Part shown: piece by piece, positions 6,041 through 30,700 of the stretch | Layout: each line of letters begins with the position of its first letter | Position numbering within the stretch: position 1 is the stretch's first letter | Position numbers and translations under genes: made by a program | Source: Raillietiella orientalis | Taxonomy: Eukaryota | Assembly (NCBI GenBank): GCA_036172245.1 | Contig: JAYWIR010000002.1 | Coordinates: forward strand, 2,604,001 to 2,668,000 | Direction of reading: 5' to 3' | DNA: 64,000 nucleotides | Notes under the pieces: generated by a model | Told to the model about the DNA's origin: nothing | Databases searched by the model: none | What the model saw: only the letters and a program-made list of their open reading frames with translations

Positions 6041-6059
6041 GCACACACACACACACGTA

Positions 6060-7057: not shown

Positions 7058-8741
7058 GTATTATTCCCCTACCTCCACCACACTTTCTCCCTCCCCGTCC
7101 GCCTTCCCTGCTTCTCGCGTCCTTTCCCGACCCCCCCCGCGCCCCGGCGGTCCCCTTTGTTCCCACCCCCGCCGCGGCCGCCCTCGCGCATTAACCCCGA
7201 CCACCCTCGCGCAGCTGGGGTTCGCCCTAATGAAGTGGTCGGCCATGCCGCCGCCACCGTGCCGCCGCCGCTGCCGCCTCCAAGGGGGGGGAGGGAAGTC
7301 AGCGCTTGGGAAAGATGGGGACGCAGCCGGCCTCCTGCCGGAAGCCGCGCGCGAAACCATCCCGTTCCTCCCCGCGACCCCCTTCCCGCCGTCCTGCTCG
7401 CGCCACCGAGGAGGGGAAACGCCTCTACCCGCCTAACCCTCCCGCAACTCTCGCTCCCTGCCTGCCCCCCGTTTGCTGTGGGAAGGAAGGAGCGCGGCGC
7501 TCCACATGCGGGAGGCCTTCCCAGGGGAAAAGGAAGGGCTTCCTACCTCACTGGAGAGGGCCACAAACACCCCCTCCTCCTCGTTCGCGAATGCCGGAAG
7601 CTCGCGTGGGTCTCCGGAGGGATGCATGTGATGTGCCTCCTCCCCCCTTCCGTCTCCGCTGCTGTCCTGCCTGGATGGCACTTTGGGGAACCGCGCTCGC
7701 TACGCGTGTGGGCTCCAGGAAGACGCGTGAGGCAGCCACCGGCCTACTCGGAAAGCCGAGAAGAAATGGAGGGTCTTCTTTTCCTCCCCGAGCGCCAAAT
7801 CCCCCCCGAAGGCAGCGCAGCCCGGAAGAGAAGGAGGAAGAGGGATCGGTTCCCAGCACGCACGTCCTCCTTCTACCCCCTGCTTCCGAACCTAGCAGTG
7901 GCCGGGGGAATCCTTCTGTTCTCTTTCGTAGGAAGCAGGGAGGGAGGGGGGAAGGAGGCAGTGGCGCGGTCCAGGAAGGGAGGGAGGGGGGAATGAACAG
8001 GGATCTCTTCCTGGAGCGCAAAGTCGGCGTACGAGATGCGTTTCGGCCGCCTCCTTCCAGGAGTGCCGGGCTGATCCCGCCACTCACCGCGTGAGGTGTG
8101 CGCTCTCTCATCCTTTCGATAGCATCTTTCCCGGAACGAGACTCTTCTGTTCCCGGGGGCATCCCTCCTCCCGGAGCGCGGTCCCGGCGGCTGCTCAGTC
8201 ACGCTTTCACGGGATACCCTCGGCTCCCGGTGTGTCCGATAAGGACGGCCGAAAGGGTGAGCGAGCGGTCGGGACGCTCCCGGGGAAGGATTAGGATCCT
8301 CGAGCGAAAGAGATCCTGCCGCTCGGGCGCCCGCCGGCCCCACGGGCACATGCGCCGCGCGCGCTAATCCCACAGCTTTCGCACGAGGGGCCGCCGCTGC
8401 TGCCTCCGGGAAATGCGATTTCCTCCCTCCCTCTCTCTCTTTTTTTTTGAATTTCCTTGGCCTAGAGGAGGGGAAGGGGACGTGACCTTCCTCCCCCTCA
8501 CCCGCCGCACTTTCGGATCTCCCGTCGCAGCCAGCCGCTGTTGGCACAGAGAGAGAGGAGCGGAGAGGAGGAAAAAGTGTCGGCGTTTCCCTGGGTTACC
8601 TGTGCTCCCGGAAAGCTGACCGAGTCGAACGGCGGTCACCTAGTGTCCTTCACGTCGTTCCCCCGTCCCTCTCTCCCCCCTTTCCCCGTCCCCCTCCAGA
8701 GGAAAGGAGGAGGCCGGCACGGGGATGTCGTACCGTTGCAG

Positions 8742-8895
8742 CGCAGGGATAGGGAGAGCCCACTTCGAGAAGCAGCCTCCTAGCAACCTGAGGAAGAGCA
8801 ACTTCTTCCACTTCGTGATCGCCTTGTACGACCGCTCGGGGCAGCCCATCGAGCTGGAGAGGACGGCCTTCGTGGGCTTCATCGAGAAGGACATG
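8742..8895 (+). CDS. kn: COE coding exon 2
   Basis: ttgcag| (S)[51 protein letters not shown] |gtaaga. Confidence 0.97.
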
Positions 8896-8952
8896 GTAAG
8901 AGGGACGCAGTGTCCCCGTAGGGGCCGGCCCACACTCTCCTTCCTTCCCAAG

Positions 8953-9016
8953 GAACCGGACGGTCAGAAGACCAACAACGGGATCCAGTACCGCCTCCAG
9001 CTTCTCTACACCAATG
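8953..9016 (+). CDS. kn: COE coding exon 3 (64 nt)
   Basis: cccaag| [21 protein letters not shown](G) |gtgagt. Confidence 0.97.
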
Positions 9017-9280
9017 GTGAGTGGCGGCGGCGAAGGGCGAAGCCCTCGGCTCCCTTCCCCTTCCTTCCTCCCCCCGCCCACCCTCGTCCCTTCCTTCTCC
9101 CGGGGGAGAAGGAGGAGGAGCGGGAGCAAAACTTCTTGCCTCGATACGCTCCCGCTTCCGGTGCGGCGTGTCTCCTTTCCTCTCTCCCTTCAGCGGGACG
9201 CGACCATCCCTGAACCGGCGCCGCCGGGGAAGAGATGACCGCCCGAGAGGATCTTTCATTCCTTTTCCCTTGTGTTCCAG

Positions 9281-9336
9281 GTGTTCGTCAGGAACAGGAC
9301 ATCTTCGTGCGGCTGGTGGACTCTGTCACGAAGCAG
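9281..9336 (+). CDS. kn: COE coding exon 4 (56 nt)
   Basis: ttccag| VRQEQDIFVRLVDSVTKQ |gtgaga. Confidence 0.97.
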
Positions 9337-12300
9337 GTGAGAGGGTGCAGCCGCCTCAGCTGGAGTGGTCCATCGCGGGGGAGGAGGAAGCCGTGAGAGT
9401 GGGAGAAAGGAGCGAAGGGGAAGAGAGGGGAGGCTACCTCTGGAAAGCAAGAAGGAGGAGGAGGAGAAAGAGGAGGGCGAAAGGGATGAGGAGGAAGAGG
9501 AGATCCGGGAGTCTCTTGGGCTGCGACTGGAGCGCGTGCGAGGCACACAGGGATCCGAGAGGACGTCTCTTCCTATGGAGAAGGGAAGAAAGGGGAAAAA
9601 AGTTCACCCTGAGTCCCTTCTTGCGCCCCACCCCCTCCTCTCTCTCTCTCTCTCCTCTCTTGGTTCAAGAGACGGATGGGAGAGCGGTAGGACGCAGGAA
9701 GCGGCCCTGCGGTGCGCATCACTCAGCGGCCCTCCGCTGAGTGGATGGGCAGGACAGTCGAAGGGGGAGTGCAGGTTTGATTCCAGGCCTTCCCTCGGGA
9801 GACGCCAAGCCGCCGAGTAGCTTACCGGTGTGCGAGGTTCGGTCTCTCTGAGACTGCCCCTCCCCTTCTCTCCCGCTCTTTTCCCGGTGTTGTCGTCGGA
9901 TGCGCCCTGCAGCCGCTGGAGAATGCTTGCGATAGCCGCTGGGTGGACGCGAGGTGCCCGGCTGGAAGAAGTCGCCTCCCGTGGACGCCGCGGTAACCAT
10001 GAGAGGGTGTGGTCGGGACGGGGAGGGAGCTCCCGTTTCCGTGACGGTGATCTCCGGAAGGGTGGGAAGAGGCGGTGCAGCGGAATCTCCGTCGGGAAGG
10101 GAGGCCACTAGGGGGAATCGCGCCATGGAGTTCCCCCTCGCTAGCGCGAGCAGATCGAGAGGCTCCTCCACTCTCGCTCTGAGCGGGACTCCGGGACGCC
10201 GGCTGGCCTTCCTGGAAGACCTTGGGAGGTCGGGCGGTTCTCTCGTCCCGTCAGATGCAGCGTCTCGCGTTCCCCGCCCTCTCGCCAAAGGGCGAGTGTA
10301 AAGGGCTTTTCCCCGAAAGAGCGCAGGGGGACGGCCAGGAAGTCGCCCGCAGGGGCGGATCCGGGAGAGGGAGGGAGGAATCTACGGGAAACCCCTGATT
10401 CGGACCGGAATATGGGAGCGACCCCTTTGAGGGGCTATGGGGTTGCATCTGGGAAAGCCGCCGGGAGCCTCTCCCTTTCCCCCCTTCTCTCAGTTCCTCA
10501 AGGACGTGCCCCGGAGGCGAGATCCTTCCCAAGACCTGCCCCACCAAATCCATTCCTCATCCATCCAGGAGATTCCCTCAGTGAAGGACTCTTTCTCTCG
10601 GAGAGTCCAGCCTCCTCCCTCCACCTTGAGCCCGGACTATTCCGGGAGGACCTCCATCGGGCCTTTTCCGAGGACGAGTGTTTCGGGAATCCGGAAGCCT
10701 CACGGGAGTCATGGGCGAAGTTCCTTTGGAACTCCAGGAGGAAGGAGGAGAGAACTTCCCTCCTCCTTGGATGCCTCCCTTTGGAAAGGTATCCAAAGGG
10801 AAATCCAATTCATTCCCTTTGGATAAAGGGGCGGTGGGAAGGGTGCCTCCCGTGCCCGCGCCGGTGAAGTAGGGCCGCCTTCGGGCGCGGGGAGAGGGAA
10901 GCAGGAAGAGCAGGGAGAAACTTGTTCTGCCTGAATGAGGGGCGGGGCGTCCTCGTCTCCCCGCGCCCTCGCGAGGGGCTGACGGGAACGCGTCCGTGGA
11001 GTGGGAGGAGGGCGAGGGAAGAAGAGGTCGCCCTCCTCGCACCTCTCCCGCTTTTTTTCCCGTCGCTTCCTGCAGGAGGCGGAGAGCGCGCGTGCTCCCC
11101 GCCCCGCTGAAAAGCAGGCCCCCGGACGGCGGCGGCTTCCCCTAGGAGAAGGAGAGGGACGCACTTCCTCCACTCCTTTCCTTCCTCCTGCTCTCACTCG
11201 CCCATGTGGTGGGGGACCCCGGCACGGGAGAGAGAGGAGGGTGGAAAGACCTGTGAAGCCAGTCCTCGAAACCGGGAGGGAGGTGGCGAGGGCACGGGAG
11301 GAAAAGGAAGGAGGTGGGGGTGGGAGTGCTGTCCGTCCGTCACCGGGAAACCCCGTCCTGTCAGGGGGACTCCTGGAGGAGCGTCCGATCAGATCTCCCG
11401 ACGACGGCAGGTGGTGACTCATCTCCGAGCGGACGGGAAACTCCCCCTCCGTCGCGATCTCTCTTCCCTGATTTTTATCTTCCCTAGTTTCCCGGCGACG
11501 CGCCCCGCTAATGTATGCGCGCGCGGGTTCCCGGGATCCCGTTCGGCCACCGGAGGCAAACAGACCCGGAGGGAGCCGAAAATGGGATTTTCGCAGCACA
11601 AAAGGTCCGCATCGCCTCGTCCGGGAGCGAGTGCGGCCCCTAATTGGATTGGTGGAGGGACTGCCGTTGGTGCTGCATCCGCTTTTCCCTCCTTCCCCTT
11701 CCCGGTTCCCTTCTCCCGCAGGCGCCCTCCCGACTCCCGCGGAGCGTGCCGCCGTGCACCTTCGGAGGAAAAAAGGGGGTGATGGCAGTGTGGGTGGAGA
11801 TGGCGCCCTGCCGGCCAATGGCACAACTCCAGCGAACTCTTCTCTGGGAATGAGGGAGGGTGGCAGGGGATCGTGCGTTCCGGACGGGGTCCCCAGCGGG
11901 AAACGTGGAGCTGAGATCAAGGCGGGGTGAGGGCCCAGGGAAGGAGTCGGAAGAGAGGAAGATAAGGACGGGAGGGAGGGGATGCTTCCTCGAGAGAAAC
12001 TGAGGAAGAGGAAGAGGCGAAGCCGAAAAGGAGCGCCATCCCCGAAGATCTTGGAGGGACGAGTAGGCAGGGCTGCTGCGAGATGCCGAAGAGTTGCCGC
12101 GCACTCTCCTCCTGATCTGGACCGCGAAGGAAGAGTCCCAAAGCGCTTCTCCAGCAAGCCACGGGAATAGCAGCGGGAGGGTGGACGGGGCTCCTCGGAA
12201 TCTCCTCCTCCGGGAGCGCCTGCTCTTCTCTCCGAGCCGGAGTGCATCCGGGGTTCGTCGGGAAGTCCGGCAAACGGGGAATGGAATCCCCTTTCTCGCT

Positions 12301-14113
12301 GCACCAAAACATAGTGCGCCCACTTCGTTTCCTCCCGGTTGCGTGTGTGGGGGGAGGGGGAACCGAATTGGCCGGGGCTGGCTCCTCTGGTTCCCGCTCT
12401 CTGCTTTCCGCTCCCGCCTTCCCCCCCCCCCTGCATCCTCGAGGATGCCAGGCTGTGGACCTGTCTCTTGCCCTCGGAAGGATCTTGTCTTGTTCCCCCA
12501 GATCATCCAGCCAGCCAGCGACCTTTCTCGAGGAAGGGGAACCGCAGGCAAACGGGAGAAGGGATGCGGTGAGACGGCGGCGGCGACTCGCCCGCGCCGA
12601 CTTCCTTTCTTCCTCCCGGACGACGACAGGCTCTTCCGGCGTTTTCCCCGTCCCCCTTGCCGGTTTTCTCGCCCGTCGGTGAAAGCCTCCCGCAGAGGAG
12701 CTCCTCCTCCTCCTCTTCCGGAATCGCATGGGTCCGGCGGGATTAGCGCGCAGCGTCCCGATCTCGGGAGTAGTCGAGCGTGCCAGTCCTTTGAGGTCTC
12801 CCATCGGTCACTCGGGATGGTTTTCGCGAGCCAGTTCGGTTCTGCTCCCTCGTCCTCCTCCTTCTCCGAGCGGGGGAATGCTGCTGTTACCAGGAGTTCC
12901 CCATGGGTTTCCTGCCACGACAATCCACTGGGGGGGGAGGGAGGGACACGAGCGAACGAACTTTCCTTCTCCAGAGGGACTCTCCAGCGCACATCGCGCC
13001 TCTCCACAGGGATTCCCCTCGACCTTTCCTTCCCAAGAAAAGCTCCTTGAGGGACGAGGCGCCCGGAGGCTCCTTCCCGAGATGAGTCCCGCATGCGGGT
13101 GTCCGAGAGTCCCCCTGTCCCGACCTTCTCCACCTTCCCTGAGCTACGGAAGAGTCCCTTCGGATAGAGGGGTAGAGGAAGGAGAGAGGGACAACGCCTG
13201 AAGGCCGTCCTTCCGCCCCACCAAGGTACTGCCGCCTCGGGGCTCGTGCGAACGGCTCCGAGAGTCCCTTCCGTGGCGCACTGGATCCTCGGGAGTCCCC
13301 GATTCTTCTTTTGGGGATCCCCGAAGGGGTAACGGAAGTGAGACTCTCCTCGTAGACCTTTTTTCCACTTTCGGTAGCCGAAGCAACGCGCGCTCTCTGC
13401 ACAGCGCTGCTATCCTTCACGCTCCCTCGAGCCTCTCTCAGGGATGGCGGCGTCCTGGGAGTCACGAAAAGAAAAGCGGGATAGCAATCTCCGAATCCTC
13501 TTCTCCCTGAGCGCCCCCTCCTTCCCTTCTCTCTCTCCCCCTTCCTTCCTACTCCTTGCCCTTCTGAGGGTGGCGGGACCCTCAAACTCCTGACGATTGA
13601 GAGGAACGGGAAACTTTTCTGAGGAGGGAGAGGCAGAGGTTCCGGGGGGACTTTGAAGATAGGGATCCTCCGGGGACGAGGGGTTGTCCTCCGGGAATTC
13701 CTGCAGTCGCAAAAGGAACCCTCGCTTGGATTCCCTATCGCTCAGGCTCCTCCTCCCGTTCCCTTTCTTCTCGGACCCCGGTTTTCCATCTTCCTAGAAA
13801 TGGAAAGGAGGAGTGAAGGGAGGGAACGCCGCCTCCAGGAAGTGCAAGGAAAGGAGAAAGAGAAGAAAGAGCAACAACAACACACACAAAAAGAGAGGTC
13901 TTTCTTCCTTGTGTCTTCCGGGGTGCTTTATCCTTTCTCCTTCCCTTCTGCTCTCTCCACTCTTCCCCCTCCGCTCACCACTACAGCCCGCTTTCTCGCG
14001 AAAACCTCCCAGCCGAAAAATCGGGAAGGGGGGAAGAGAAGGAAACAAAACTCGGGAAAAAGGGATGAAAGGAGAGGAAGGAAGATGTGAGTGTCCGTCT
14101 TCGGAAGTGCTGA

Positions 14114-14215
<102 letters not shown>

Positions 14216-14287
14216 TAAGCCACAGGGGAAGACGGAAGGTCCTCTGCTTCTCCGTTCGATCCCTGACCCCTCTCTCGTCTTCCCCAG

Positions 14288-14356
14288 CCGATGCTGCGAT
14301 AAGAAGAGCTGCGGTAACCGCAACGAAACCCCGTCTGATCCCGTGATAATCGACAG
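14288..14356 (+). CDS. kn: COE coding exon 6 (69 nt, zinc knuckle)
   Basis: ccccag| [22 protein letters not shown](R) |gtaggt. Confidence 0.97.
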
Positions 14357-15657
14357 GTAGGTGCTACTCAGGAAGGTCTTTTGTCCCTCCTCCCCCTTCT
14401 TCACGTCCTTCCCTCAAAGAAAGCAGAAGAGGGCTCAGGAAGCGCGTCAAGTTCCTCCGGGAGCGAAGGGGGAGGCAGGTCGGATCCCGCCGGGAGGCAA
14501 GGGATGTGTGAGTTGGGATGGAAGGGGAGCTCATCGTGCGGCGTCTCGGACCGACGTCCCTTTCCATCCCATTCCCGTCTCCACCTTTCTTTCTGCTCCC
14601 GTTGCGTGCAGAAAGAAAGGAAAGCGTTCCCGGAAAGGGTACCAATGCCCCGATCTTCAGAATTCCCTGACCCACTACGACCTCCCTCCCTCTCTCTCTC
14701 TTCCCGTAATAACTCGCCTAGTCCAGTCCGTATTATCTTCCCGTTCCCCTTTCCTCCTCCTCCTCCTCCTCCTCCTCTCCGTTCCCGGATCTGATGAGTT
14801 CCCCCGGCTCCTGGCCGTAGTGTAGGGAAGAACCTCGTTCCTGCTCCCGGGACCCCTCAGGGCTCTCCCCTGTATGCGTCTCGAGAGGGACTCCGATCCT
14901 CCCCCCCGCGCAACCCGTCGGAATTCCCTCCGCGCGAAGAGTCGCGGACGCGTCCCTCAAGTCCCTCCTCGGACCGTGTTTTCTGGATACTCCGGCAGCT
15001 CGCGAGCCGCCTGTTTTTCCCGTCTCCGCTGGGCTCCTTTTCTCCCAGGAGCTCGAGATGTCCTTCTTCGGCTGCGATGCGATCCCGGCACTTTCATTGG
15101 TTGATATCCCGGGAGGAATCTTCTCCGCGGATCGATAACCTCTGGAGACTCCTGCAGGATTCCCCGGAGTAACATAACGTGTTCCTACATTTTACCTGTT
15201 TGCCTCCCTCACGAGTTCCATCCTCGTAATCGACCGGGACTTTTCCCTCCTTTGGATTCGTCCGGGATATAAAAAGAGCGGTCGGGATTCCTCGTCTTAT
15301 CAGCCGCTTGGCGAGCCCGGGATTCCTCGAACACGCGTCGTCGCGCTCCATCCTCCGGAGAGGAACAGAGAGAGAGGGGGGGAAGGAAAGAAAGAAGAAA
15401 GCAGAAGAAGAGCGAAAGACTCTCCTAGCTCCTCCCGTCTTCCCACTTGAGAGCCGAGGAGGCAGAGAGGCCTCCAAGGACTCCGGAGGTCCTTGGAATT
15501 GACTCCCGTCCTGTGAGGAAGCCAACTCGATCCCGGAAAGAGAGAGAGAGGCAGAGGAAATAAAGGAAAGCGATCCCGGGGAGCGGGACGCTTGGCGCTC
15601 GCGCTCGCCAGCGAAGCTGCGTAGGAGATCCCCCTTTTCTTCCCTTTTTTTTCCTTT

Positions 15658-16720
15658 GGGACTCCGCTCACGGCAGTCTTTCACTTGCGCAATCCGCGAG
15701 GCGAGCATCCGAAGAGCACGGAGCGGGAACGTCACGGTGGATCTTCACGGAGGACGCGCGCGGCCTGCCCTTCCTTCTCCTCCCTCTCTGGGAGACGCGG
15801 AGGCGTCGGGAGGAACGCGAAGGGGAAAGGGTGGCAGACGAGAGAGTTTCCGGGGCAAGCGGCGCCAAGTTTCCTCCGACAGCAGCGGGAGGAGCAGGAA
15901 GGCTGGACGGATCCTCCCTCTCGCTAGGCATCCAACAGCTGGTCGGAGTGAGGTCGTCAGGGGCCGGAACCAGGAACCCCGGGTGGGTGGGGGGTGGGGA
16001 TTCTGCCCAGCTGGCAGCCCCCCGCGTTCCCTCAAGAGGGAGCGCAGGGAAGGGAGCGAGCTGCCCTCCCGCTCTGTCGGCGGGGAAACCCCCCCGTCCG
16101 CGCCCTACAGGGTCTATCTAGGGTGAGAAGTGGCGGAGAGGAAGGAAGGGAAAGTTCTGGAAAAGGCAAGAGGCCTCCTCTCACTGAGGCGCACTGCCTT
16201 CCCCCGTCTTCGTCTCTGCTCCTCTTCTTCCCCTTCTTTGGCGCGACCCGAGAGCTTCCTCTAGAGGAGGGCGCCGCCCTCTCTTATACCACCCATGCTC
16301 CTTCCCACGTCGGTCGGCCGCTCTCCTGCAACAGGGGATGTGTGGAATGGGCGAGCACGGGAAGTGGTTTTTTTTCCCGGAGACGAGAAGCCTCTTCGCT
16401 GCGGGCAAGCATCGGCCCCTCGCCCTTTGTCCCTCCCTCTTATCCAGGATCAAACGCACCCTCACACGCGCCCAATTCTGATGAGAAGGGACCCTCAAGG
16501 GAAGAAACTTGGCGCCGCTTGCCCCGGAAACGCTCCCGTCTGCCACCCTTTCCCCTTCGCGTTCCTCCCGACGCCTCCGCGTCTCCCAGAGAGGGAGGAG
16601 AAGGAAGGGCAGGCCGCGCGCGTCCTCCGTGAAGATCCACCGTGACGTTCCCGCTCCGCGCTCTCCGGATGCTCGCCTCCCGGATTGAGGAAGCGAAAGA
16701 CTGCCGGGAGCGGAGGTCCC
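15658..16720. repeat. inverted repeat pair, arms 15658-15877 and 16500-16720 (about 220 bp, low-90s % identity by eye)
   Basis: Direct reverse-complement comparison; near-identical peptides in ORFs 15656(+) and 16440(-). Confidence 0.95.
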
Positions 16721-17330
16721 CGGGGAGCAATTGCAGCAGCAGCGACGGAACGGAATGCAAATCGTCTCGTCCTCCGGGCTGTGCCCGAGAGCGCTCGAGC
16801 GGAGTAGTTCGCTCCCTGAACGCGTCTGAGCGGTCGCTCTCCGCGGAAGAAGAAACGGAGGGTGTGCCCTGACCCGGGGGAGGAAAGGAGGGAGAGGAGA
16901 AATCATCCTCTTCCCTTTCTTGCTCAGGCCTGGCTCGAAGCGGCACCTCCCAATCTCTCCGCGATCCCCGCATCACCCACCCGCCCCTGGATTCGTCTTC
17001 GGAAATCGCACAATCACCCGGGATCAGCAAGACGGGAAATCCGAGGGAGCGACGGAGACGGGGGATGAAAGGAGCTGTCGTCGCTTCGAGCATTCCCAAG
17101 GTCCCGTTTCCGGCTCCTTTTCCGGATGGCTGATCTGCCGCACGTGGGGAGCACAGTGCCCTTCGTTCTTAGGGCAGCTGCCCTCGAAGACACGGCAGGC
17201 GCGCCCTCTGCGCCCAGACTTCGGCCCCTCTTCCCTCCCGCGTGGACGTGCGGGTCCCTACGATCGAAAGCGGGGGAGAAAAGGGCAACACTAGTCAAGG
17301 AGGATCAGCTTTCCCGGAAAGGCAAGATCT
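16500..17330 (-). pseudogene. inverted histone-array block (H3 then H4 on -)
   Basis: ORF 16440-17099(-): DCAIS..RDWEVPLRARPEQ (H3 LCAIH..[13 protein letters not shown]) followed by IREASIRRARSGNV (H4). Confidence 0.65.
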
Positions 17331-17769
17331 GACGATTCCTCTCCCGCCATGGGGAGAGCACCCTCCACGAACCTCGTAGGGCATCAGTCAAGGAAAAGTC
17401 ATCCCAGAGGTCGCCAGCTGCTCTCCCCTATCTCGGAGCGGCCCCTCGTCTTGTGCTCCTGTAGCAGGAGGCGGAGGGAACCTCCCGAGACCTTCTTAGG
17501 GATCCCCACACGAGATTCATGGATCTCCAGGTTATAGACGCTCTAAAAAGAGAGCTTGGAGGAGAGTACAGAGAACATCATCTCTCTCTGGACAGCCCAA
17601 GAAGAGGGGGGGGGGAAGGCATAGGAAGGGTCCAAGGTAGCTTCGAGCCAGTCTCGTGTGGTCGGTGCGATAGCAGCGCAACCCCGGTGGCTAGTGGAAG
17701 GGTCGTCTCCTGCTCGTCCTCTCCCCAGTCTCCGTCCGAAAGAATCTCATTAGGATCTTCTATTTCCAG

Positions 17770-17851
17770 ATTCTTCCTCAAGTTTTTCCTCAAGTGCAAC
17801 CAGAACTGCTTGAAGAACGCGGGTAACCCCCGAGACATGAGGAGATTCCAA
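17770..17851 (+). CDS. kn: COE coding exon 7 (82 nt)
   Basis: ttccag| [27 protein letters not shown] |gtaagt. Confidence 0.97.
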
Positions 17852-18355
17852 GTAAGTGCAAGTCTTCCTTTGCCCAGGGAAGGGGATCCCAGGGGCTCCG
17901 AGGGTCTCCCGTAAAAAGGGAGTGGACAGGGGGAGAGCACTGGTAACTCCAAATTCCCAAGAAGAGAAGGAGGGGGGCAATCTGGCAGCAGCCACCACTT
18001 CTCCAGCTCCTCGTCTCTGACTCCGCATCCCTTCTCTCCCCTCTTTCCCAAGGGACGTTTCCTTTTGCTCACCGGGGATGCTGCTTCCACAGAACCAGAG
18101 TGAGCAGCCCCTCCAGATGTGGACGCGTCAGTAGAGCATGAGCGCAGCGCTTCCTGCTACTCCCCTTCCCTCCACACCCTCCCCCTTCCACTTCCCGTCC
18201 CCAAAGGATGGTTCCCGATGCCTCCCTGCTCCTCTTCACGTCGCCCTCCCTCACCTTTCGAGCCCGGAGAGCAGCGGTGGGGGCACCACGGGACAACCTC
18301 TCCCCTTTCCCCCCCCGCTGGGTATTCCAACTTTCTCCGTGCCCGTCCTTTCTAG

Positions 18356-18473
18356 GTAGTGATAGCAACTCAGGTCAATGTGGACAGCAACCTGCTGGCT
18401 ATTTCGGACAACATGTTCGTGCACAACAACTCCAAGCACGGGAGGAGGGCGAAGCGTATGGACCCCTCAGACG
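18356..18473 (+). CDS. kn: COE coding exon 8
   Basis: ttctag| [39 protein letters not shown] |gtaatg. Confidence 0.95.
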
Positions 18474-19618
18474 GTAATGCTGCCCTCTCGCATTGGTCGG
18501 GTGTTCTTGGAAGGGACGTCTCCTCGGGATGGACTTTTCCTTTCGCACGCGCGCGCGCGCCGGTAGCAACTGAGGGTCGCGGATGCTTCAGAAGCGGAAT
18601 GGGAGGAGGGAGAGGAGGGCAATTCCCCTCCCTCCTCCGGTTCTCTCCCCCCCCTTCTTTCCCATCCGGACTCCCGGATGGGAGAGGAGGGAGGTAGGAG
18701 TGCTGTCGGGGATCACGCTGATGTCAAAGAGATGGACGAACGCTCCATAGGAATCTCCCTGCACTTCCACGCGCGCTCTGCCTTCCTTCCTATTCGGGGA
18801 CTCCTGCCTTTCTTCCTCCAGCCTGCTCCCCCCCGTTCTTCCCCCTCCTGGTGATGGAGGAGCTCCATAGAGCTTCTCCGATTGCGAGCGGAGTGGGTTT
18901 CGTCTTCCTGTGAAAGGGAGCAACGCAGTTTGCCCGTTCCACCTTCCTTCCTCCCAGGAGGCACACAGTCTCCCCTTCCTTCCTCTCGGAAACCTCGATG
19001 CTCGCCTCCGATTCTCGGGCATCGGGAGATCTTCGCTGGTGAGTCCGCATGGACGTGGAGAATAGTGCGCCAACTCTCTCGAAGGCTTTCGCTCTGGCGT
19101 GCTGCAAGCGTGCCGAACCGCCTCCGTACCAGCGGCGGAAGGATGCTGACCGTCCAGGCAAGACGATCTTGACTTTGACCCCTACGCTGCTGCCCGGTAT
19201 TTCCAGCCTCTCCCTCTCTCTCGAGTCTCGTGGAATCTATTGAGGAGACTGTGAGGGTCTTCACTCGTTGCATACCCACGAACGGGATGTGTAAGCACGG
19301 GGGGCACGCAGGGTCACGCGTACTTCGAACGCCAAGCCCTGCCACTTTCACGATCCCACGAATCTTTCTTTCCTCGCCCTCTCCCGAGTTCTCTCCATTC
19401 TTGTTCAAAGGCCTCCACTTGAATCTTTCCCCTTTCACGTTGAGATGATGATGCTTCCCTGAAACACCACTTCGAGACTTGGGAACATTAATCATTCTGA
19501 TTAAAACATGGAAACCGTAACCCTAGGCATTGACACCCTGAATCGTGACTCCATGGGACTTCTTGGCTATGTATCGCCGCCTTTTTGCTCTTGAATCGCT
19601 CTAACAATGAGAGCCTGG

Positions 19619-20540
19619 GAATCCCATGGCTTTAATAGCGCAAAATTCCAAGATGGTGGCGCTCAGTGTAGGCTTGACGGGCTTCCAAGACGGACGATTG
19701 CATGCATTCCAGTTTTTGTTTCAAGAATTTCCTTCCCCACCCTTTCCTCCCAAAAGCACGGGAGTCGTGGTACAGGCTGAGCTCTAGATTTCTTCCGGAC
19801 CCAGGGCAATGAGGGGTCCCTGCAAAAGTGGCAACTTGTCCTAATGTTCATAGAAGGCACATGCATCTGTGCTCCTGGGTTCGCGGCGTGTGCCCCATCT
19901 ATCGTAAACATAACCTTCAGCGCGAAATGATTTCGACACGATAGGGAAAGAACAGGGTAGCCACCCCTGCGTTTTGTACCCCAAAGGATCGGAGAAGCAG
20001 GCCGGCATCACGTGCGCGAAGAGAGTGCTTCCGCTGTGTCACCAAAATTCAGAGATCCCTCGTACCAGTTTACGCCTTTCATGTTTGCCGCATGAAACTC
20101 TTTGAGGTTCCAGGCTCTCGAGAGCCGTCCTCCTGATGGCCCACGACACCGTTATCCTGCAAGCTCGTTTCCACGAAAACGTGCATCCTCTTGTAACAAG
20201 GCGAGATGGGCGCTCGCTTAATGAACCGAGTAATGCCATGTTCGCTGACAGGCGTCGATCTTGGAATGCAGGTCCACGGTTTTCTTCTCTTATCACGTGA
20301 ATGAACTTTTCTCATGAGACTGAACACACAGCTCCTAGAAATACATGCATCTGTATGCACATTACAAACAGGTGCTCCTTCATTTCCATGCTCACAGTTC
20401 ATGGAACGTATGCCACCTGCTATCTATATGTGTATTTATATGTATGCATACATATATGCATATCATCCGACTTGAAAGCTCGGCAAGCCTACACGGAGCG
20501 CCGCCATCTTGAATTTCGGGCTATTAAAGCCGTGGGATTC
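19619..20540. repeat. inverted repeat pair, arms about 19619-19706 and 20456-20540 (about 85 bp, roughly 85% identity by eye)
   Basis: gaatcccatggctttaatagcgcaaaattccaagatggtggcgctcagtgtaggcttg versus caagcctacacggagcgccgccatcttgaatttcgggctattaaagccgtgggattc. Confidence 0.9.
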
Positions 20541-20600
20541 GAAGATGTGTGTAGCAGGTGGCAACCGATTTGGCTTTTCTTTTATAATATGTACACGAGA
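19890..20600 (-). pseudogene. inverted histone-array block (H3, H4, start of H2B on -)
   Basis: ORF 20079-20402(-): HGITRFIKR and MHVFVETSLQD match H4 QGITKPAIRR and LKVFLENVIRD. Confidence 0.6.
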
Positions 20601-23026
20601 AACCTTTGCTAATCGGTACACTTACCACATGTACATTCATGGAAATAATAAAGGTGAAATTGTGCACTTATCTCTGTAAATGCATAATTTCATTGGCTTT
20701 CCAACAGTTTAGTTAGGACCTAATTATGAAGCTGAATGCGGTGAGGAAATTAGAAAGGGTACCGTCAGAAAGATTCCGGATCTCTGAGCAGGAAACCAGA
20801 AATTTCGGCCTGCGCACACCTGAGCGCGGTCTTTCATTTCTTTAATCCTCCTGGCAAGGGGCACCCACCATAAGAACGAAGAACGTGCTGTGGTGCATTT
20901 TGGTGTTTCTGTGAGACGCATCTCCAGGACGTGTCCCGCTAACAAGTGTGTGTGCAGCCATTCCGATCCGGGAGAGGAGCCCACTCCCAGACAAAGGCCC
21001 ACAACACATTCCCGCCCACGATCCATTATTCATTTCTTATTAATTATTAAGTGCTGCTTCGCGAGCGGCACGGCACTCGCTGCCGATTCTCGCCGTGCAC
21101 TGCAGAGTCAGCAGCGTGGAGCCGCCTCTGCGCGCTCTTAAGAACGGGAGCTGACCTCGGAAGCCTCCTTGAGAGTGTGTGTGTGTGTGCGCGCGCGTGT
21201 GTGTGGAGGAACGAGGGGGATGGAGACTCTCCAGAGGCAGGAGAGCGATACCTTCCCGCAAGGCTGGCGCCGGAGATGAAAATTCGAAAGGATCTTCTTC
21301 CGGATCGATTCGGCTTGCCCTCTTCGAACGAGCACTTCCCGACGACGGAGGCGGCCATATTCCCAGACGGGAAGGGGGGCTCATCTCCGAACCAGAAGAA
21401 CCCTGCTATTCTTTCTAGAAGGGAAGACTCCCACTCGCCCGGACGGTCGGGCTGCACCCGTGCCTTGCTGGCGCCGAAGTTTCCCTGCATCGTCGGTTCT
21501 TCCCGAGAGCCTCCTGGTCTCGGAAGGACCGCGAGGGTCCTCTTCCAGACCCGGTCTGAGAGTGGAAGTTTCTTCGGCACTGCTGTGCTGCTGCACCAAG
21601 GGTCTCCAAGGTCCCGATCGATAGCGGTCTCCTCTCCGAGTTCATAGCGCGCCGCCGAAAGGGAGGGAAAGGGAGGAGAGGAGGAGCCTCCGTGACGAGG
21701 GGGTGGCGTCACGGCGTGTCATCCCTCCGCCTGCTTCCCGTCGCTTTCCCGAGAAGCGGGGCTTTTCCGAGATTCACGACGACCCGCCAAGCAAGGCTCG
21801 CCGCGGCGGCGGAGGCTGCTCCGCTTTGGCGCGACCGGGAAAGCGAGAACTTCCGCCTCCGGAGGATGGTGTGGGCGCGTCTCCAGCAGCTCTCTCGCAG
21901 CTCCCGGGAACGCCGCTATTATCCGAGAACGCTCACCGTGAGGTGTCGCGACCGGGAGACGGGAGCGTTCTCCGGCGACGACACGATCCGGCGGGGTTCT
22001 TCTCTCGCTCTCTCGACCGGTTCCCGCCCGGGATCATCTCATCAAGAATTCTCCCTCGTCCTCGTTCGAGGGTAGGATGCGAGGGTGGCTGCGTGGGGAC
22101 GGGGATTTCCCTTGCCCCTCCACAGCAGCATCAGGGGTCCTTTGGGATTCGACCCTTCGGAGTCATCTCTGATGATAACATGCCCAGCACCTTTCCCGTA
22201 TGAGAATCTGGAGGAGGGAGCGAGGAGCAGCGACATTTTCAAGGCGACCGGTGCGTTGGTCACGCCGTGTCTCTGAACCAGCGGAAATGCAGATTGGGAT
22301 CGTCAGCCTCCCTCCTCTGTCCGAGAGAAACCGGCACCTCTCTCATCCGTTCGCAGGAGTGGCCCTTTTATCGGGAGAGCAGGCCCTGGACTCCTCTGGG
22401 ACCTCGGTAGCCCGCACTGGAGCGCGTATCCTCCTTCTGGAAGGATCTTTCTCTCGCCTCATCGTTCGGCACGCGCGCCACACATCCGCTCAGCCATCGC
22501 GCCCATCCGCCCCGTCTACCGAATCGTCTTCCGGTGCTCCACCATCAGAGTCGACTGAGGGAGGTAGAAGAAGAATGGGGAAGAGAAGAAGAAGATGAGC
22601 GGGCAACTGGGAGCTCCATGAGCCCTGTTTTTCGACTGATGGCTCTTCATTCCCCACTTCTTTGTTCCCGACGGGGGCGACGAGTTCCCTCCTGGGGATC
22701 GGTCGCAGGGTCAAGGAGCACCTTTTCTTCGGACGCTTCGGATGCATCTTCCACCATCTCTTGGAACCATTCGGAAGCCACCCCTGTAGTGACCCTCCTT
22801 CGGTTCCCCCCACATCTTCCCTCACTCTGAACATGCCTTCACTGCTCCAGCATTCTCGGGGTCAGGACGGGCGTCCTTGGATCTCATCAGCGCACCGAAA
22901 CCAGCAGGAAACTGAGACGGGACGAAACGACCGCAGCTCGAACCCTGCGATCGTCGGAGGAATCTGAAGAGGATGGTCCGTGAAAAGGTCGAGCTCGCTG
23001 CCGGAGTCGGGGTGAATTCCCGCTGA

Positions 23027-23371
<345 letters not shown>

Positions 23372-23441
23372 TAATCGTCCTTCCGCCCCCTCCCCCTCCT
23401 CTCCTCCTCTCTCTTTCTGCTTCCCGATCTTTGCGCGGCAG

Positions 23442-23568
23442 TTCATCACCACGCACGCCATCCGAGTGCAAACGCCGCCCAGGCATATCCCCGGGGTGGT
23501 CGAAGTCACCCTATCCTACAAATCCAAGCACTTCTGCAAAGGGGCTCCCGGTCGCTTCGCCTACGTGT
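23442..23568 (+). CDS. kn: COE coding exon 10 (127 nt)
   Basis: cggcag| [42 protein letters not shown] |gtaagt. Confidence 0.96.
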
Positions 23569-23637
23569 GTAAGTAATCCAGAAAACGCTCCAGCGCGCTT
23601 CAGCACTCAGGGTCTCGGGAAAAAGTTCCCACCGTCT

Positions 23638-23726
23638 CGCTCACCGAACCCACGATCGATTACGGTTTCCAGAGACTGTCAAAGCTCATACCGAGGCATC
23701 CGGGAGATCCTGAGAAGCTGCCGAAG
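23638..23726 (+). CDS. kn: COE coding exon 11 (HLH helix 1); 5' boundary uncertain (no AG at the conserved position; in-frame AGs give starts at 23611 or 23626)
   Basis: (S)[29 protein letters not shown] |gtagca. Confidence 0.88.
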
Positions 23727-23815
23727 GTAGCACTGCCCTCCGGCCTGCCTCTGGGAGGGAGGGAGGCCGCCCCTTCCTTCGCCCTCCTAACTCTCTCCCA
23801 TCTGCCCCACCCTAG

Positions 23816-23990
23816 GAGATCATCTTGAAGAGAGCGGCAGACCTGGCAGAGGCGCTGTATAACATGCCGAGGAGCAACCAGCTCGCCCTCACGAATCCGA
23901 GGTCGCCGGCCATCAACAACATGTCTAGCGGGATGGCGGGTTTCAACACGTACAGCGTCCAGGACACCCCTGGAGCCCAGTGGAGCGAAG
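23816..23990 (+). CDS. kn: COE coding exon 12 (HLH helix 2)
   Basis: ccctag| [31 protein letters not shown]...QWSE |gtgagg. Confidence 0.93.
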
Positions 23991-24082
23991 GTGAGGGAAC
24001 GCACGCATCGAAAAGGTTCAACACACTCAAAAACTCCCTTTTTCTTTTTTTTTTGGTTCTCATCTCAGGTTTTTTATTTTAG

Positions 24083-24375
24083 AAGACTATGGGATAGGTC
24101 GCGGGCAGACTGACGGGGAAAGTCCGAGGGGATGCACATCTTCCAACACTAGTCACAGCAGCTACCCGTCTCCCTACAGTTCCGCGGCGCAATTCTCGTC
24201 CACCTCCATATTGCAAGGATCATCGCGTAAGGGGACTTGCGGGTTTTCCGGAATGACGGTCATTCCAGGGATGGGCTCTTTAGTGTCCACGCCCTTCTCC
24301 AACATCAACCCTTTCGGCCTGCCCACTTGCAACACCCAGATGTACGGGAACGCCCTCATTACCTCGGCGAAATGA
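24083..24375 (+). CDS. kn: COE terminal coding exon (may contain a 42-nt in-frame intron, 24227-24268)
   Basis: ttttag| (E)DYGIGRGQTDGESPRG...NINPFGLPTCNTQMYGNALITSAK TGA(24373-24375). Confidence 0.85.
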
Positions 24376-24712
24376 CATCGCTCCCCTCCCCCCCGGCGCT
24401 CTTCCGGACCCTCGTGCCCCGCAGGGAAACCCTCCTCCTCCGCCGACCTCCGGGCAAAGATAGCTCGCCGCCTCCAAAGACCTCTCTCCAAAGTGTCGCC
24501 TTTTCTTTTTGAGAATGTTGTGCCAAAGATTTTTAGGTTTATTTTAGAAGACAGTCTATATTTATCCACGACACTGTGTCATAAGTCTGGTTACTCTACG
24601 GTGGCTTCTGAGACGTCGCTCCAGATGCCAAAGAAGAACACGGTCTCTCCGACGAGGCCATTCCGATGATCTCAGACATAAATAGCTTACATGACATATC
24701 ATTAGATAGTTG

Positions 24713-24718
24713 AATAAA
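24713..24718 (+). terminator. candidate polyadenylation signal AATAAA for COE
   Basis: First AATAAA downstream of the stop codon, in an AT-richer patch. Confidence 0.45.
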
Positions 24719-27700
24719 AGGATTAATGAATCGTAGGGGCTTCTTGTCGTAGGGCTCATGGGGGTCAGCTCCACCTCTCAAGGTGCAAGAGCGCTAGAAT
24801 TTCCCGAGGATGGACGCGTTCTCTGCGGGACAGCTCTTCGTCCTTCCTCTCCTAGGAGGGGGTTTTCTCGTCCCGGATCGCTTCCTTCCCCCCCTTCCTC
24901 TTGCACGCACCATCGCGCGCTGCTCCCGGCAGCAAGGTGATCCCGAAGCTAAGTGCAGCAAATGCGGAAGGATCCAAAGATTCCCTCTCTGTACTGGAGA
25001 GGGGGGGAGGAGGTCACCTCCTGCCAAAGAAGGCCTGTAGCCTTCCTTCCACCCAAGGGATGGTTTCACCGGGGCTTCAGGGGGAGCCTGAAACGTGAAG
25101 GTGTTCTGCGTGGTCCATCAACAAGTGGCTTCTCTCTTGCACTTCCGAGGTGAGGGGACTCCCTCGTCGAGAGTAAGACCACTGCATACGGTCATGTTGT
25201 GGAAGCCAGGACGCACCCCCCTCCCCTCCTCTTCTTCCCGATCATTCCTCAGATGTACTGGAATGTCTAGTAGAAGGTTTTTCTGTGGAGTTGCGTGTTG
25301 TGACACGTTCTTCAAGGAAACAGCCACTGGATGGATGGCCTGAGGAGAGCAACACAACCTTCTCCAGTCTTTCCTTATCAACGGGGCTACCAATCGGAAG
25401 TGCCTCTAGAACCTTGGGGGGATGCTGGTTCCAGGAGGGGGGGAAGGCAAAAAAAAAGTCCCGGGTCTTCCTACCAAGGCACACGCGAGAGGGAGCGATT
25501 GGTGGGGTGGCACGTGTGAGGAATGGCTGGAGAAAGGAATAGGGTCTGAGGGGGAGAAGGGAACCTCGCGGTTCTGCTCCTTGGAGCTTGCCTTCCCGGG
25601 AGAATGCCCCGAGTGCGACACCCAAAGGGAAGCTGAGCGACTCCGGTGCCTTCCCCAACCATTATTCGAGTACCCGAGACTTCCGGGAACCCACGGCCGA
25701 CGTTTCTGAGGCTGGAGAACGCACTTTCGACAGCTTGCTGACCCTGTAGGCTTCCTCCCTCGTTCCCTCTCCTCCCCTTATCCCCCTTCCGCGTTTGCGA
25801 CAAAGCCAGGAGGGTGGGTTACGTCTTCGATCTGCTCATGCGATCGCGCCGCCCCCCTCAAGGGCGGGTGGATCGTCCCGCACGGACATCGCGTCTTCCC
25901 TCCCTTGGGATCTTCCTCCCTATTACGAAATGCCGTGTCATCTCATTCGGTGCTTTCGGCCCCTTCCTATCTGCAGCAAAGGGAGGAGGGAAGAAAGGGA
26001 GTGGGAGGAGGAGGAAACGGGTCCTGAAAAAGTGGCTGGAGGGGGACACGTCCCTTTTCCTCTGGATGGCACCTCTGGCGCAAGGGAGCACGTCTTGGGC
26101 GGCTCTTCCAAGGAGCATGGCGACCACTCGCAAGCGCTCAGAGCTCTTTCTGGTACCGCTCAGGCTCAGGGATGTAGGAGCGCTGCCGGAGGACCTCCAA
26201 CTTCCAGCCCGCGAGCTCGGATCACCTCCTTTCCCCTCTTCTGGGTAGACCACATGCCCTCTGACTTTCCTTACAGGCAAGAAACATAAGGCGCGCTAGG
26301 CGTGAGGTCAGTGCGCTAACACGAGACTGAGACCAATAGAAAAGGAATGGGCAGTTGCTTTAGTCATGCAACCGGCTGGCGCGTGGGTGCTGGTGCTGGT
26401 GGGCAGTGGTTGCGGGAATCGAGTTGGAACCCGGAGGAATCCATGCCATGTGCATGGGAAGGCGACCTCGCCCTTATCTCTCGTTGAACCACTCCGCACA
26501 CAGACGCAATCGGGTAGGGGAAAAGAGATCTTTTGCATCACGTGGAGGTTCCCTCCCTCGCAACTAGGAAGTGATGTAAGGGCTTTCCAGAGTCTCAGAG
26601 GGGCGCCAAGACCGATCCCGCGGGTATTGCCCCGTCATCGCTCCTCCCTCTCCAGGGACCGCGATTACAGGCAGTGGAGGGAGTATAAAGGAGAGTTGAC
26701 ACTTGCGTTTCGAGAGAGGGGAGGATCCATGAAGTGATCACCTCATCAAGGAACAAGGTGCTTACCCCGGCCTCGAGGACCACGAGGGTCCCCGCGCACC
26801 TGGCTCCAGAGCCCAAAGAGAGCCAATGGCGCTCCTGAAGCGTTCGGCATTCCAACCGACTCTTCGGGGCACAGCGGGTCACTCTCCCGGGCTCTGGGAT
26901 TTGGTGTGCAACCCCCTGCGAGTTCAGGGGAAGCGCGTGACTTCCTTCAAGAGCCCCCTGCTGCTCCGAGGACGCGAAGATGGTGTCCCGAGGGAGAAGT
27001 CTCTGGAATCCCTTCCTCACCTCTTCAGATCCTGGGCTCTTTTGGCAGCTTCTACGAGCCCTCAACGGAGCTGCCACCGTCTCCTTTGTCCGGAGAGGAG
27101 GGTGTCTGGGGAGGGGATCAGATATTCTTGCTCTCTACCTAGAGAAAATCCCTCTTTCTTCCTTTTTCACCCTCCTGGCTCCCAACGCGGCGTTGCTGCA
27201 AAAACCGGGAAGGGTGAAGTCACGTCCTCAGGTTTCCCCCTGCCTCATCTTCACCCCCTCTCCTACCCTGACCGTCCGTAGTGCGAGGTGCTCCTGCGGT
27301 CCCAAACCTCGCAAGTCACGTGACCACTCCCAGCAGCGCTCATTCGTGCCCAGTGCCGTCAGCTTCGATGTTGCTGCAACCGCTCTCTCCCCCATGTACC
27401 TTCCGACGTCGTCACGCGTCTTCGGGGTCAGGTCGACTCTGGTTAGGTACCCTGGGAGAAAAAAGGACTTCCTCAAGGTAAAGGTGCGAGAAGGAGCGGG
27501 ACAGGTTCCTGGGGGGAAATCGAGGGGGCAGGTTCCTGCCTCCTAGACGGGATTGAGGGCTGCTGCTGGACGTGGAGAGAGCAGGGAGGCCTGAGGGAGT
27601 CGCGTGCGATCTTCCCATGTCCTCTCCCTCGCTTCACGCGAGGGAATGCAAATATCCCCGGGCCTGCCGTAATTCGATTTCCAGGGATGACGCACTTTGA

Positions 27701-30700
27701 CATCCTGTAATCAAATTCTGACTCGGGATCCCGTCACCCAAGAAAAGCCGAGGGAAGGAAAAGAGAGCGTCCGCTCCCGTTTTTGCATTTGCGTCCTGGA
27801 ACGGCTGCCACTTGCTGTTTTTCCGGGATTTGAAAAATGGTTCCCACCTCGCGAAAAATCTTTCCTGGCGCTTCCGCGTAATCTCTTTTAATCAATTACC
27901 CGGATTTCCTGTAGAGCCGGGAGACTTAGGAAACGTAACGAGAGGGATTCACCGGGATTCGGCTGATCCGACGGCACTAATTGAATGTGAGGAGCGCCTC
28001 CCCGACTCTGGGAGACGCGGGAATAGCCCGCCGCGGATGCCGGGCAAGCCACGGAGCTCTCCCGGAGACTCCAGGAGCGCAGGATGCATTGAAGGGAAGC
28101 GGCGGCGCGGCAGAGAGGTGTAATCCTCTGGATTAAGTCCCGGAAGCCGCGGTGCCCGGCACTCCTCCCAGCTCCATTTGTCGACGAGCGCTCTTCCCGA
28201 TTGACGGTGTTCCGTTTTTCGCTCCCCCTTCTTTTTTTCGTCTCCCGTCTCTATTCGTAGGAAGGAAGAGGAGGCAGGAAACCGAAAGCTACCGCTGCTC
28301 CTCCCCATTCGCTGACGGTGGCCCCCCCTCCATCAGGCAGGTTCTGCTTCCGCGGTGTCATTGCCGCTTCTACACTCCTCTTCCTGGTGGGCGGACGGCG
28401 TGTGAGAGGGAGAAGAAAAGGGGGAGGAAGGAAGCAGGTGGAAGAGGAAGGACAGGAAGTGGAAGATAGGAATAGGAGGAGGAGAAAAGGGAAGGTGCTG
28501 CCTGGGGGCGGCCGCGGTAGTCTCGCCATCGAGCGTTCGTGCGCTCCAGTCCTGCGCGGATCCGGGAGGAAGGGAGGGAAGGAAAAGGACGACCCCGCGC
28601 TCCCTCCAGCAACATGGGCAGAGCCCCTAAAGGGTTCGGTAGAGTTCCTCCCCATCCATTTCCCCGAATGCAGCATCCCTTCCTCTCCTCGGGGAGGGAC
28701 GCAGCAACTGGGCCGGATCAGGAGGCGAGACGACCGCCCGCGGCGGGAGCGTCCCGGCTGGAAAGGAGGGGGATCGATGCCACCTCGAACGACACAACTG
28801 GGATGAGGGGGGATGAATCCACTCCGGAGGATCGCGGTCGGCGCGTGGGGCGACGCAGCCGTCGTATCCAACGCGACGCTTCCTCTCCCGCTCCCCCTCG
28901 TCAAGCGGTGACGGCGCGCTAGGTGCCCAGAGGTTCCCTTTTTTGCGCAGTCGGCCGAGCTGCGCACAAGATTTGAGGAGCAGCGGCAGTGGGAAGGGAA
29001 AGCCACACTCAGGTAAACCAGGGAGCGAGCAGAGGTTCGGTTGGCATGGTCATCGAGTGCGCTAGCAGAGCCGCGTTCTAAAGAAGGGGAAAGGGAGGGT
29101 GGGTGCACAGGAAGGGGAAAAAGTGGAGCTGCGCACCTGCTTCGCCCGCGTCTCCCCGAAAGGGGAAGCGGAGAGGGGGACCTGCGGCTTCCCGCAGATT
29201 GCGTCCCCATTTTTTAGGAGATGCCTTCGACCGAGTAGGACGTCTTCACGGGAGCGAGGCGTCCGTGTCCATCCAACCAGTTCCGGAGCCGCGGATAGTC
29301 GCCTCCCACAGGAGTCGCACTAGTTCTCCCGGAGCTCCCCGAGAGGGAGCTCTCTTTCAGACGAATAATACGGCGACGGGGGAGTCCCGGACACCGGAAT
29401 CCTTTTGGTGCTTCCCCGAAGGGGACGGAGAGGATGACGAAGAAGCTCTTCCGGTCGTGCTCACCCAGAAAGGTGGCTCGTTCAGCTTTTCCTAGGAACC
29501 GCGAAGGGACCATTCCGCTTGCGGGTTTTGTGTGCCGAACTACGAAGCTGTAAGGGTATAGGGAATCGACAGGATCGTCGGGAACTCCAAAAAATCGGTC
29601 CGGGAGAATCCTCCTCCTTCTCAGTCTACCCTTCGTCCCCAGAAATTTCTCGGGAAAGGGAGGGAGGGAGTTGGCAAGGGTTCCGTGGGAGGAAAAGAAG
29701 GAAATAAAAAAAGCATTTTCTTGGCTTGGGAGGGGAGAACGCGGACGATCCCATCCTATTAGGAGAGGGCAGAGAGGTCCTCTCGATCCCAGTCCGGAGG
29801 TAGGGAAGATCTCCGGTTGCCCCTTCCCGCCCACGGAGTTTCCGACAAGACGCGCGCCCGGAAGGAAATCGTCAAAAGGCGATACCCGAGAAATATTCGC
29901 GAGTCCTTCCTCTCCAGTTCGGGAAGGGTGTCGATTGCAGCTTTTCTCCCCTGCTCTGCTCCCGAGGCTGCAAGTTGGCGACGCCCTCTCCCTGGAGCGA
30001 AGTCGGCAGCGATCCCTAATCTTCCCGTTGCGCCTTGGATGAAGCGGGAAGAATCCAGGCACCCCTACGTGGGAGCATGAGGTTTTCCCTCTGCGGGCCT
30101 CCTCCCTTGATAGGTTCCCTGGTTCTCGCCCCCAACTCCCTTTTGCAGGCGCACGTCTTCTCCAGATGGATGGCGGCCAGCGGCAACGAAAACTCCTTAG
30201 GGGGATCTTCGCAAGCAGTCACCGAGGGAGGACGCTGACCAGGATCACAGGTCCGTCTGATCCATCCCTCACTTCCCTCGATCTCTTCTCCTCGATCGTG
30301 AGGACAAGCGATTCCCGAAAATTTCCACTCAACTGCTTTCGCTCCTTCCTCTTCTCCCGAATTCTTCCTGAGTTGCTCCTCCCGAAGAGAAATGTCATGA
30401 CGCGGTTTAGCTTCTCTTCCCTCCCCGCCTTTTTTCCCTATCCGGGATAGTCCGGTAGGTCTCGCGGGAGAGCAAGGATGAAGGTGTTCTTCCAGAGGGA
30501 CCTCTGTCAGGGGTTCTTCTTGATCTCCCGGAGCCTCGAAGCCCGTCCGCGAGTCCCAGACTGTCCCGGAGCGCACTTTGGGGTCCTCTCCTGTTCCTCT
30601 GGACAGATCGTTGGCGGGAAAGGAGGGAGGAAAGACCGCGGAGGGCGCGCAACCGATATATGGGAGAGCTGAGACCTTCCTAGATGGAGGAGGAGTCCCT

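Follow-up and report, generated by a model that had tools for sequence, protein, structure and literature searches.

A COE/EBF/collier gene with a missing intron-10 acceptor and a probable acceptor shift at its IPT/TIG-HLH junction

COE factors, which include collier/knot of Drosophila, UNC-3 of C. elegans and EBF1-4 of vertebrates, share the domain order COE1_DBD, IPT/TIG and COE1_HLH, and known COE genes have in common an exon pattern with a phase-1 donor after the last TIG strand. The accessible text of Daburon et al. (2008; PMC2394523) describes COE intron positions as conserved and the IPT plus HLH block as conserved in length, and it argues that dimer formation depends critically on how IPT and HLH are positioned with respect to each other. 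The COE isoforms described in the same text arise elsewhere, through alternative exon-8 donors that place 8-10 extra residues in the linker between DBD and IPT. Structural work on EBF1, as far as the accessible portion of PMC2923972 goes, backs the assignment of a zinc knuckle in the COE DBD, and its IPT/TIG crystallisation construct ends just before the TIG-HLH linker stretch.

The window, that is, the whole stretch of 64,000 nt analysed here, contains a single COE/EBF/collier gene of 13 coding exons on the + strand (6930-24375), identified by tblastn with the prawn collier protein P0016. This gene has the domain order and the phase-1 donor of the known COE genes, but it differs from them in lacking the acceptor before HLH helix 1, with a predicted TIG-HLH linker of 6 or 11 residues in place of 2. 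Exon boundaries were read from the sequence after the tblastn mapping with P0016; the coding part opens with the ATG at 6930 and closes with the stop at 24375:

6930-7057, + strand: exon 1
8742-8895 (or from 8700), + strand: exon 2
8953-9016, + strand: exon 3
9281-9336, + strand: exon 4
14141-14214, + strand: exon 5
14288-14356, + strand: exon 6
17770-17851, + strand: exon 7
18356-18473, + strand: exon 8
23193-23344 (or from 23214), + strand: exon 9
23442-23568, + strand: exon 10, second half of the IPT/TIG domain, ending in phase 1 with T at 23568
23638-23726, + strand: exon 11, conserved 89-nt core, helix 1 of the COE HLH, with its donor GT at 23727
23816-23990, + strand: exon 12
24083-24375, + strand: exon 13

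Apart from one splice site, the gene is intact. Its joined frame is open, giving 526, 530 or 535 aa in three exon models that differ in the choice of intron-10 acceptor, and the coding sequence of about 1.58 kb holds no frameshift and no stop. All introns other than intron 10 (11/11) run from GT to AG, with lengths from 57 to 4804 nt. A tblastn search of the window detected no second copy of exon 11.

The three COE domains were recovered exon by exon. Five single-exon translations pass the 27-bit cut-off of Pfam COE1_DBD (PF16422), with 92, 47.1, 43.7, 54.7 and 49.1 bits; together they span profile positions 32-80 and 122-231 of 231, the remainder being covered by tblastn. The segment ending ...THEVMC and the exon that follows it show 92.6% identity to P0016 across both exons (tblastn), and this stretch we take to be the zinc knuckle of the DBD. 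After the DBD comes IPT/TIG (PF01833), with a cut-off of 20.9 bits: exon 9 exceeds it at 38.1 bits (positions 1-42 of 84), while exon 10 scanned alone gives 14 bits, below the cut-off, over positions 46-84 of 84. In tblastn, the exon 9 segment (23207-23347) shares 93.6% of its residues with the TIG domain of P0016, and the match containing exon 10 extends across intron 10 into exon 11 with an overall identity to P0016 of 64.4%. The HLH domain (COE1_HLH, PF16423) is found on exon 11 with 68.4 bits against a cut-off of 27 (positions 1-29 of 44, starting at the Leu codon 23640-42), and its positions 30-44 lie on the exon 12 translation with 23.8 bits. Exon 11 also matches the PDB chains 3MUJ, 3N50 and 3MLP, which are solved COE1 and COE3 chains.

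Protein searches returned COE proteins only, with identities of at most 78% in exon 12 and at most 97% in the 31 conserved residues of exon 11. Aligned from end to end with a 522-aa scorpion COE protein (P0088), the predicted product shows 73% identity, and the best value, 81% over 467 columns, was obtained with a springtail protein. A quick tree places the gene inside the arthropod clade (SH-aLRT 97), in an unsettled position near the hexapods and on a fairly long branch (0.22). The best reading of the locus is a functional COE/EBF/collier gene of an arthropod-like animal. Compared with P0016, six residues are absent after ...GFNTY within the continuous exon 12; the gap is a small deletion specific to this lineage, downstream of the HLH.

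The exceptional splice site is the acceptor of intron 10. An earlier note on this DNA had claimed that the conserved 89-nt exon beginning at 23638 lacks its 3' splice site, and that frame could be rescued by AGs at 23609-23610 and 23624-23625; all of this is borne out. Positions 23636-23637 read CT instead of AG, directly before exon 11 (CG CTC ACC...), and the elements around the site are these:

23569-23574, + strand: intron-10 donor GTAAGT at the conserved phase-1 position, following the end of exon 10 (...TAC GTG T, 23568)
23598-23610, + strand: branch-point-like motifs TTCAG (A at 23602) and CTCAG (A at 23609, overlapping the AG at 23609-23610), named by motif resemblance only
23609-23610, + strand: candidate rescue acceptor 2 (CAG|G), frame-preserving; its use would leave an intron of 42 nt and add 27 nt (9 aa)
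23624-23625, + strand: candidate rescue acceptor 1 (AAG|T), frame-preserving; its use would leave an intron of 57 nt and add 12 nt (4 aa, F-P-T-V)
23626-23637, + strand: 12 pyrimidine-rich nt ending in CT where homologues have AG; 8/10 pyrimidines at -12 to -3 of the ancestral site

The 69-nt interval before exon 11 contains six AGs, and only the last two are in frame. Retention of intron 10 would place an in-frame stop right after ...YVCK, and the first AG within exon 11 (23671-23672) was rejected as an acceptor because it would form a TAG stop with T23568. Given these two stops, the conserved exon can be reached only through the two upstream AGs. Two other readings of the intron were set aside by inspection, without scoring: a U12-type intron 10, as the donor is a plain GTAAGT, and alternative donor GTs at 23565 or 23567, which would leave introns of only 15-27 nt. 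The pyrimidine-rich stretch at 23626-23637 looks like the old polypyrimidine tract of the lost acceptor and is probably now coding. The base before exon 11 is T, and the junction codon in the window is consequently Ser (TCG).

How exceptional this site is can be judged from the homologues. In the set of 120 listed, 103 show the IPT-HLH junction, and exactly four residues separate GRFxY from EPT in 98 of these 103. Four of the five exceptions run straight past the junction with C-K or C-E, which corresponds to an unspliced phase-1 donor (T|GTAAG or T|GTGAG), and the fifth is an unverified gene model. Anonymous genomic ORF fragments that read through the end of the intron have Ala (GCN) before the Leu in 62/62 cases (17/17 and 45/45), meaning that the base preceding the exon is G every time. 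Seven distant metagenome loci were also recovered. All five that bear the intron have AG exactly at this spot, where the window has CT although its donor occupies the conserved phase-1 position; the other two, read by eye, are contiguous across the junction and appear transcript-like or intronless. The sequence found upstream of exon 11 in the window occurs in 0/7 of these loci. No bona fide insertion at the TIG-HLH junction was found among 229 homologues, and no insert is present there in any of the 98 cleanly spliced ones. Judged from these comparisons, the loss of the intron-10 AG exceeds chance and is meaningful.

Such invariance also bears on the reliability of the window itself. If the assembly or its consensus were wrong at this point, or if it carried a variant of one haplotype, for example with an AG dropped after 23637 or two bases miscalled, the organism would have a normal acceptor and a V-S junction. 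This would suit the invariance of the junction throughout the homologues checked, a good tract (8/10) that abuts the ancestral site and rescue AGs that look random, and restoring the AG would give an intron of about 69-71 nt, typical of the short introns of this gene (57-97 nt). However, the site does not lie in a homopolymer and would require a 2-nt deletion or a double miscall, while the open frame over all 13 exons and the 11 canonical introns speak for a sound sequence; the lack of any frameshift in the coding region in particular argues against a sloppy consensus. Moreover, neither of the last two AGs breaks the frame, an outcome with about 1 chance in 9 if they are unselected. An error or a one-haplotype variant is therefore considered unlikely, though by no means negligible.

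The explanation preferred here is a real, lineage-specific acceptor shift that would lengthen the two-residue linker between IPT/TIG and HLH, and as a whole it is given a probability of about 0.6. According to this explanation, the metazoan-wide acceptor of the phase-1 intron between IPT/TIG and HLH would have been lost through replacement of AG by CT, and with the donor unchanged, the reading frame could be kept only by using an AG upstream. The likelier site would be the AG at 23624-23625, which would place the extra residues F-P-T-V after the last TIG strand and ahead of HLH helix 1, and the AG at 23609-23610, with nine extra residues, could serve as an alternative or in a minor isoform. 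States of this kind usually arise when a tandem alternative acceptor becomes fixed and the old AG then decays. What the data show directly is the state of the sequence, the reading frames, the otherwise intact gene and the invariance of the junction in other COE genes; the reality of the change in the organism, the choice of AG and the tolerance of a longer linker are points that we infer from genomic sequence.

In favour of the acceptor shift stands the integrity of the rest of the gene, with its one open frame, its regular introns and all three COE domains. The gene also contains two more in-frame tandem acceptor pairs (8699/8741 and 23192/23213). On the other side, the best pyrimidine tract still lies before the dead ancestral site, and the rescue AGs resemble random AGs; this combination points to a change of very recent date or else to an error. 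The lack of a bona fide insertion among the 229 homologues and the importance that Daburon et al. (PMC2394523) attach to IPT-HLH positioning for dimers also count against the shift. The configuration is like known cases in which a gene that has lost an acceptor turns to a cryptic or tandem 3' splice site: the AG is gone, the donor is as before, and the nearest in-frame AG lies 12 nt upstream. It departs from typical acceptor sliding in that the replacement site, presumed to be in use, has almost no pyrimidine tract (3/10).

The two upstream AGs were compared with a position weight matrix built only from the 11 main acceptors of this gene, and scores were ranked among the 4416 + strand AGs of the window. 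The sites ending at 23610 and 23625 score -8.6 and -9.1, at the 62nd-64th percentile, whereas the 11 main acceptors, in leave-one-out scoring, range from -1.4 to 10.7 and lie at the 90th percentile or higher. Pyrimidines at -12 to -3 amount to 7/10 for 23610 and 3/10 for 23625, compared with 6-9/10 at real sites. Neither rescue acceptor is good, and 23610 is the better one close to the site.

Intron architecture, on the other hand, favours 23625 over 23610. The gene has another 57-nt intron, at 8896-8952, which likewise ends in AAG, and the distance from the branch-like As at 23602 and 23609 is 23 and 16 nt to 23625, compared with 8 and 1 nt to 23610. A YTNAY motif is present in 3/5 of the other short introns, where its best-placed A is 20-25 nt from the intron end; intron 12 also carries a TTTAT, which lies 6 nt from the intron end. 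With 42 nt, intron 10 would fall below the length of all 11 others (minimum 57). Assuming that the change is real, use of 23625 is slightly favoured, use of 23610 alone is the less likely choice, and use of both is rather unlikely.

Short introns of this kind have been described in Drosophila. The accessible part of Pai et al. (2017; PMC5762160) describes a class of "ultra-short" introns, 40-50 nt in length, whose 3' sites are weak and whose branch motifs lie near -14, and on this ground a 42-nt intron is not impossible in an arthropod. The resemblance lies in the short intron, the weak 3' site and the near branch motif, about -14 in Drosophila and -16 here for 23625. However, the window comes from a different species, and the splicing precedent for introns of 42-57 nt within it is one 57-nt intron of the same gene.

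Weak substitutes could also mean that splicing fails. The gene would then be a loss-of-function allele or a decaying copy, with correct splicing abolished and no working COE protein. The lost acceptor and the poor quality of both upstream AGs agree with this, and neither fallback would save the protein: retention leads to the stop already described, and skipping of exon 11 should shift the frame, since the phases at the ends of exons 10 and 11 differ (1 and 0). Against it, all other exons are open and strongly conserved, up to the 81% identity with the springtail protein, all other splice sites are canonical, and an in-frame cryptic AG is at hand 12 nt upstream of the ancestral site. A dead gene is thus regarded as improbable.

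The retained tract raises a different possibility, namely that the ancestral position is still spliced as a non-canonical GT...CT intron of 69 nt, yielding a normal protein. The tract is rightly placed for the old site, as are the branch-like motifs 28 and 35 nt upstream of 23637, and the T at 23637 gives the same Ser codon as a spliced T|CG would. The donor, however, is of the plain U2 type, and the 11 other introns of the gene all end in AG. CT is not known as an acceptor dinucleotide of either spliceosome. Splicing of this kind is very improbable.

The stretch before exon 11 has a further property, in that its 12 nt (23626-23637) resemble the last 13 nt of exon 10 (23556-23568), with 9 matches, 3 mismatches and 1 gap. 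In a fixed-length test, 0.3% of random 12-mers from the window were as good, although the similarity had been noticed only after looking; in the fairer length-free anchored test the proportion is 2.7-4.6%, making the significance marginal. At the protein level, the predicted insert F-P-T-V echoes the preceding F-A-Y-V. One could imagine that the acceptor was overwritten, and that 23626-23637 is a decayed copy of the end of exon 10, joined to exon 11 as in the spliced mRNA. A break at the 3' end of the intron would have been repaired from a spliced transcript or cDNA, the tract and the AG would have been replaced by exon-10 sequence, and use of the AG abutting the copy would have been forced. 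Overwriting of this sort would explain both the echo between F-P-T-V and F-A-Y-V and the contiguous coding of V-S-L-T-E-P-T. With the fairer test at 2.7-4.6% and the post hoc notice, the similarity was rejected as evidence and kept as a weak lead only, and overwriting of the acceptor is judged improbable.

Another cause had been proposed by the earlier note, which read TTC CCA CCG TCT CGC across the lost acceptor as FPPSR, an H2A-like motif in the phase of a local array, and suggested that a histone-patterning process had altered the splice site. The bases do read FPPSR, but the frame that contains them (23362 to 23730) is non-coding and there is no array. The one point on the side of this idea is that FPPSR shares 3/5 residues with the H2A motif FPVGR quoted in the note. 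The 122-aa frame with FPPSR matches no Pfam family at E <= 1, and in the six-frame translation of the window FPPSR occurs 4 times and FP..R 84 times. Seven strict histone signature patterns gave 0 hits in the six frames of the window, and a loose 5-residue histone pattern gave one match, at 45577, far from the site. Tandem Repeats Finder detected no tandem repeats at 14777-28424, and no dispersed array was found at the site, the dispersed repeats of the window being purine-rich or poly-T low-complexity families only. The resemblance of FPPSR to H2A is a matter of chance. With neither an array nor histone-like sequence present, the histone interpretation is rejected as far as these scans reach, its probability being practically nil, and nothing in the finding speaks for histone-like sequence being written into genes by some process. 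What stands of the proposed shift of the IPT-HLH junction is the absence of the ancestral acceptor and the probable addition of 4 or 9 residues; the cause given for it does not.

If the acceptor shift is real, the insert would fall into the two-residue gap between the domains, where the Y of exon 10 is the last residue of the Pfam TIG match and the Leu codon 23640-42 opens COE1_HLH, and it would extend the TIG-HLH linker to a predicted 6 or 11 residues between the last TIG strand and helix 1. A known parallel is provided by the DBD/IPT linker isoforms, as far as the accessible text on them goes, since they too involve a small in-frame change of length through nearby splice-site choice in an interdomain linker. 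However, the variable linker described there is that between DBD and IPT, whereas the change in the window would affect the length-conserved IPT plus HLH block. As far as the compared sequences go, an insert at the TIG-HLH junction is unusual.

A real change would represent a natural experiment on a junction whose length is invariant across the animal COE proteins examined, and a working COE protein with a linker longer by 4-9 residues would set a bound on the constraint on IPT-HLH spacing. Otherwise, the case is a routine loss of an acceptor with cryptic-site rescue, or a flag for a base-level assembly error. Most likely the gene structure has changed in an ordinary way, by an acceptor shift, at a junction that is otherwise invariant to an unusual degree.

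Several minor observations concern the rest of the gene and its surroundings. Intron 2 (8896-8952) is 57 nt long, in frame and stop-free, with an AAG end, and its retention would add 19 residues within the DNA-binding domain; alignment with orthologues favours its being spliced rather than retained. The tandem in-frame acceptors are 42 nt apart in intron 1 (8699/8741) and 21 nt apart in intron 8 (23192/23213), the latter pair lying in the DBD-IPT linker, which is known to vary among COE isoforms.

No other genes were recognised at 1-6900 and 24400-64000, where ten long ORFs outside the COE gene have no Pfam family, and Rfam and tRNA scans of the window gave 0 families and 0 tRNAs. The GC content of the window is 0.44-0.68, and purine-rich GA/GGA low-complexity tracts are abundant. 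The COE gene appears to lie in gene-poor surroundings. Inside its intron 6 there is an inverted repeat (15662-15877 and 16500-16715) with arms of 216 nt that are 95% complementary and separated by 622 nt, which may be a foldback or MITE-like element.
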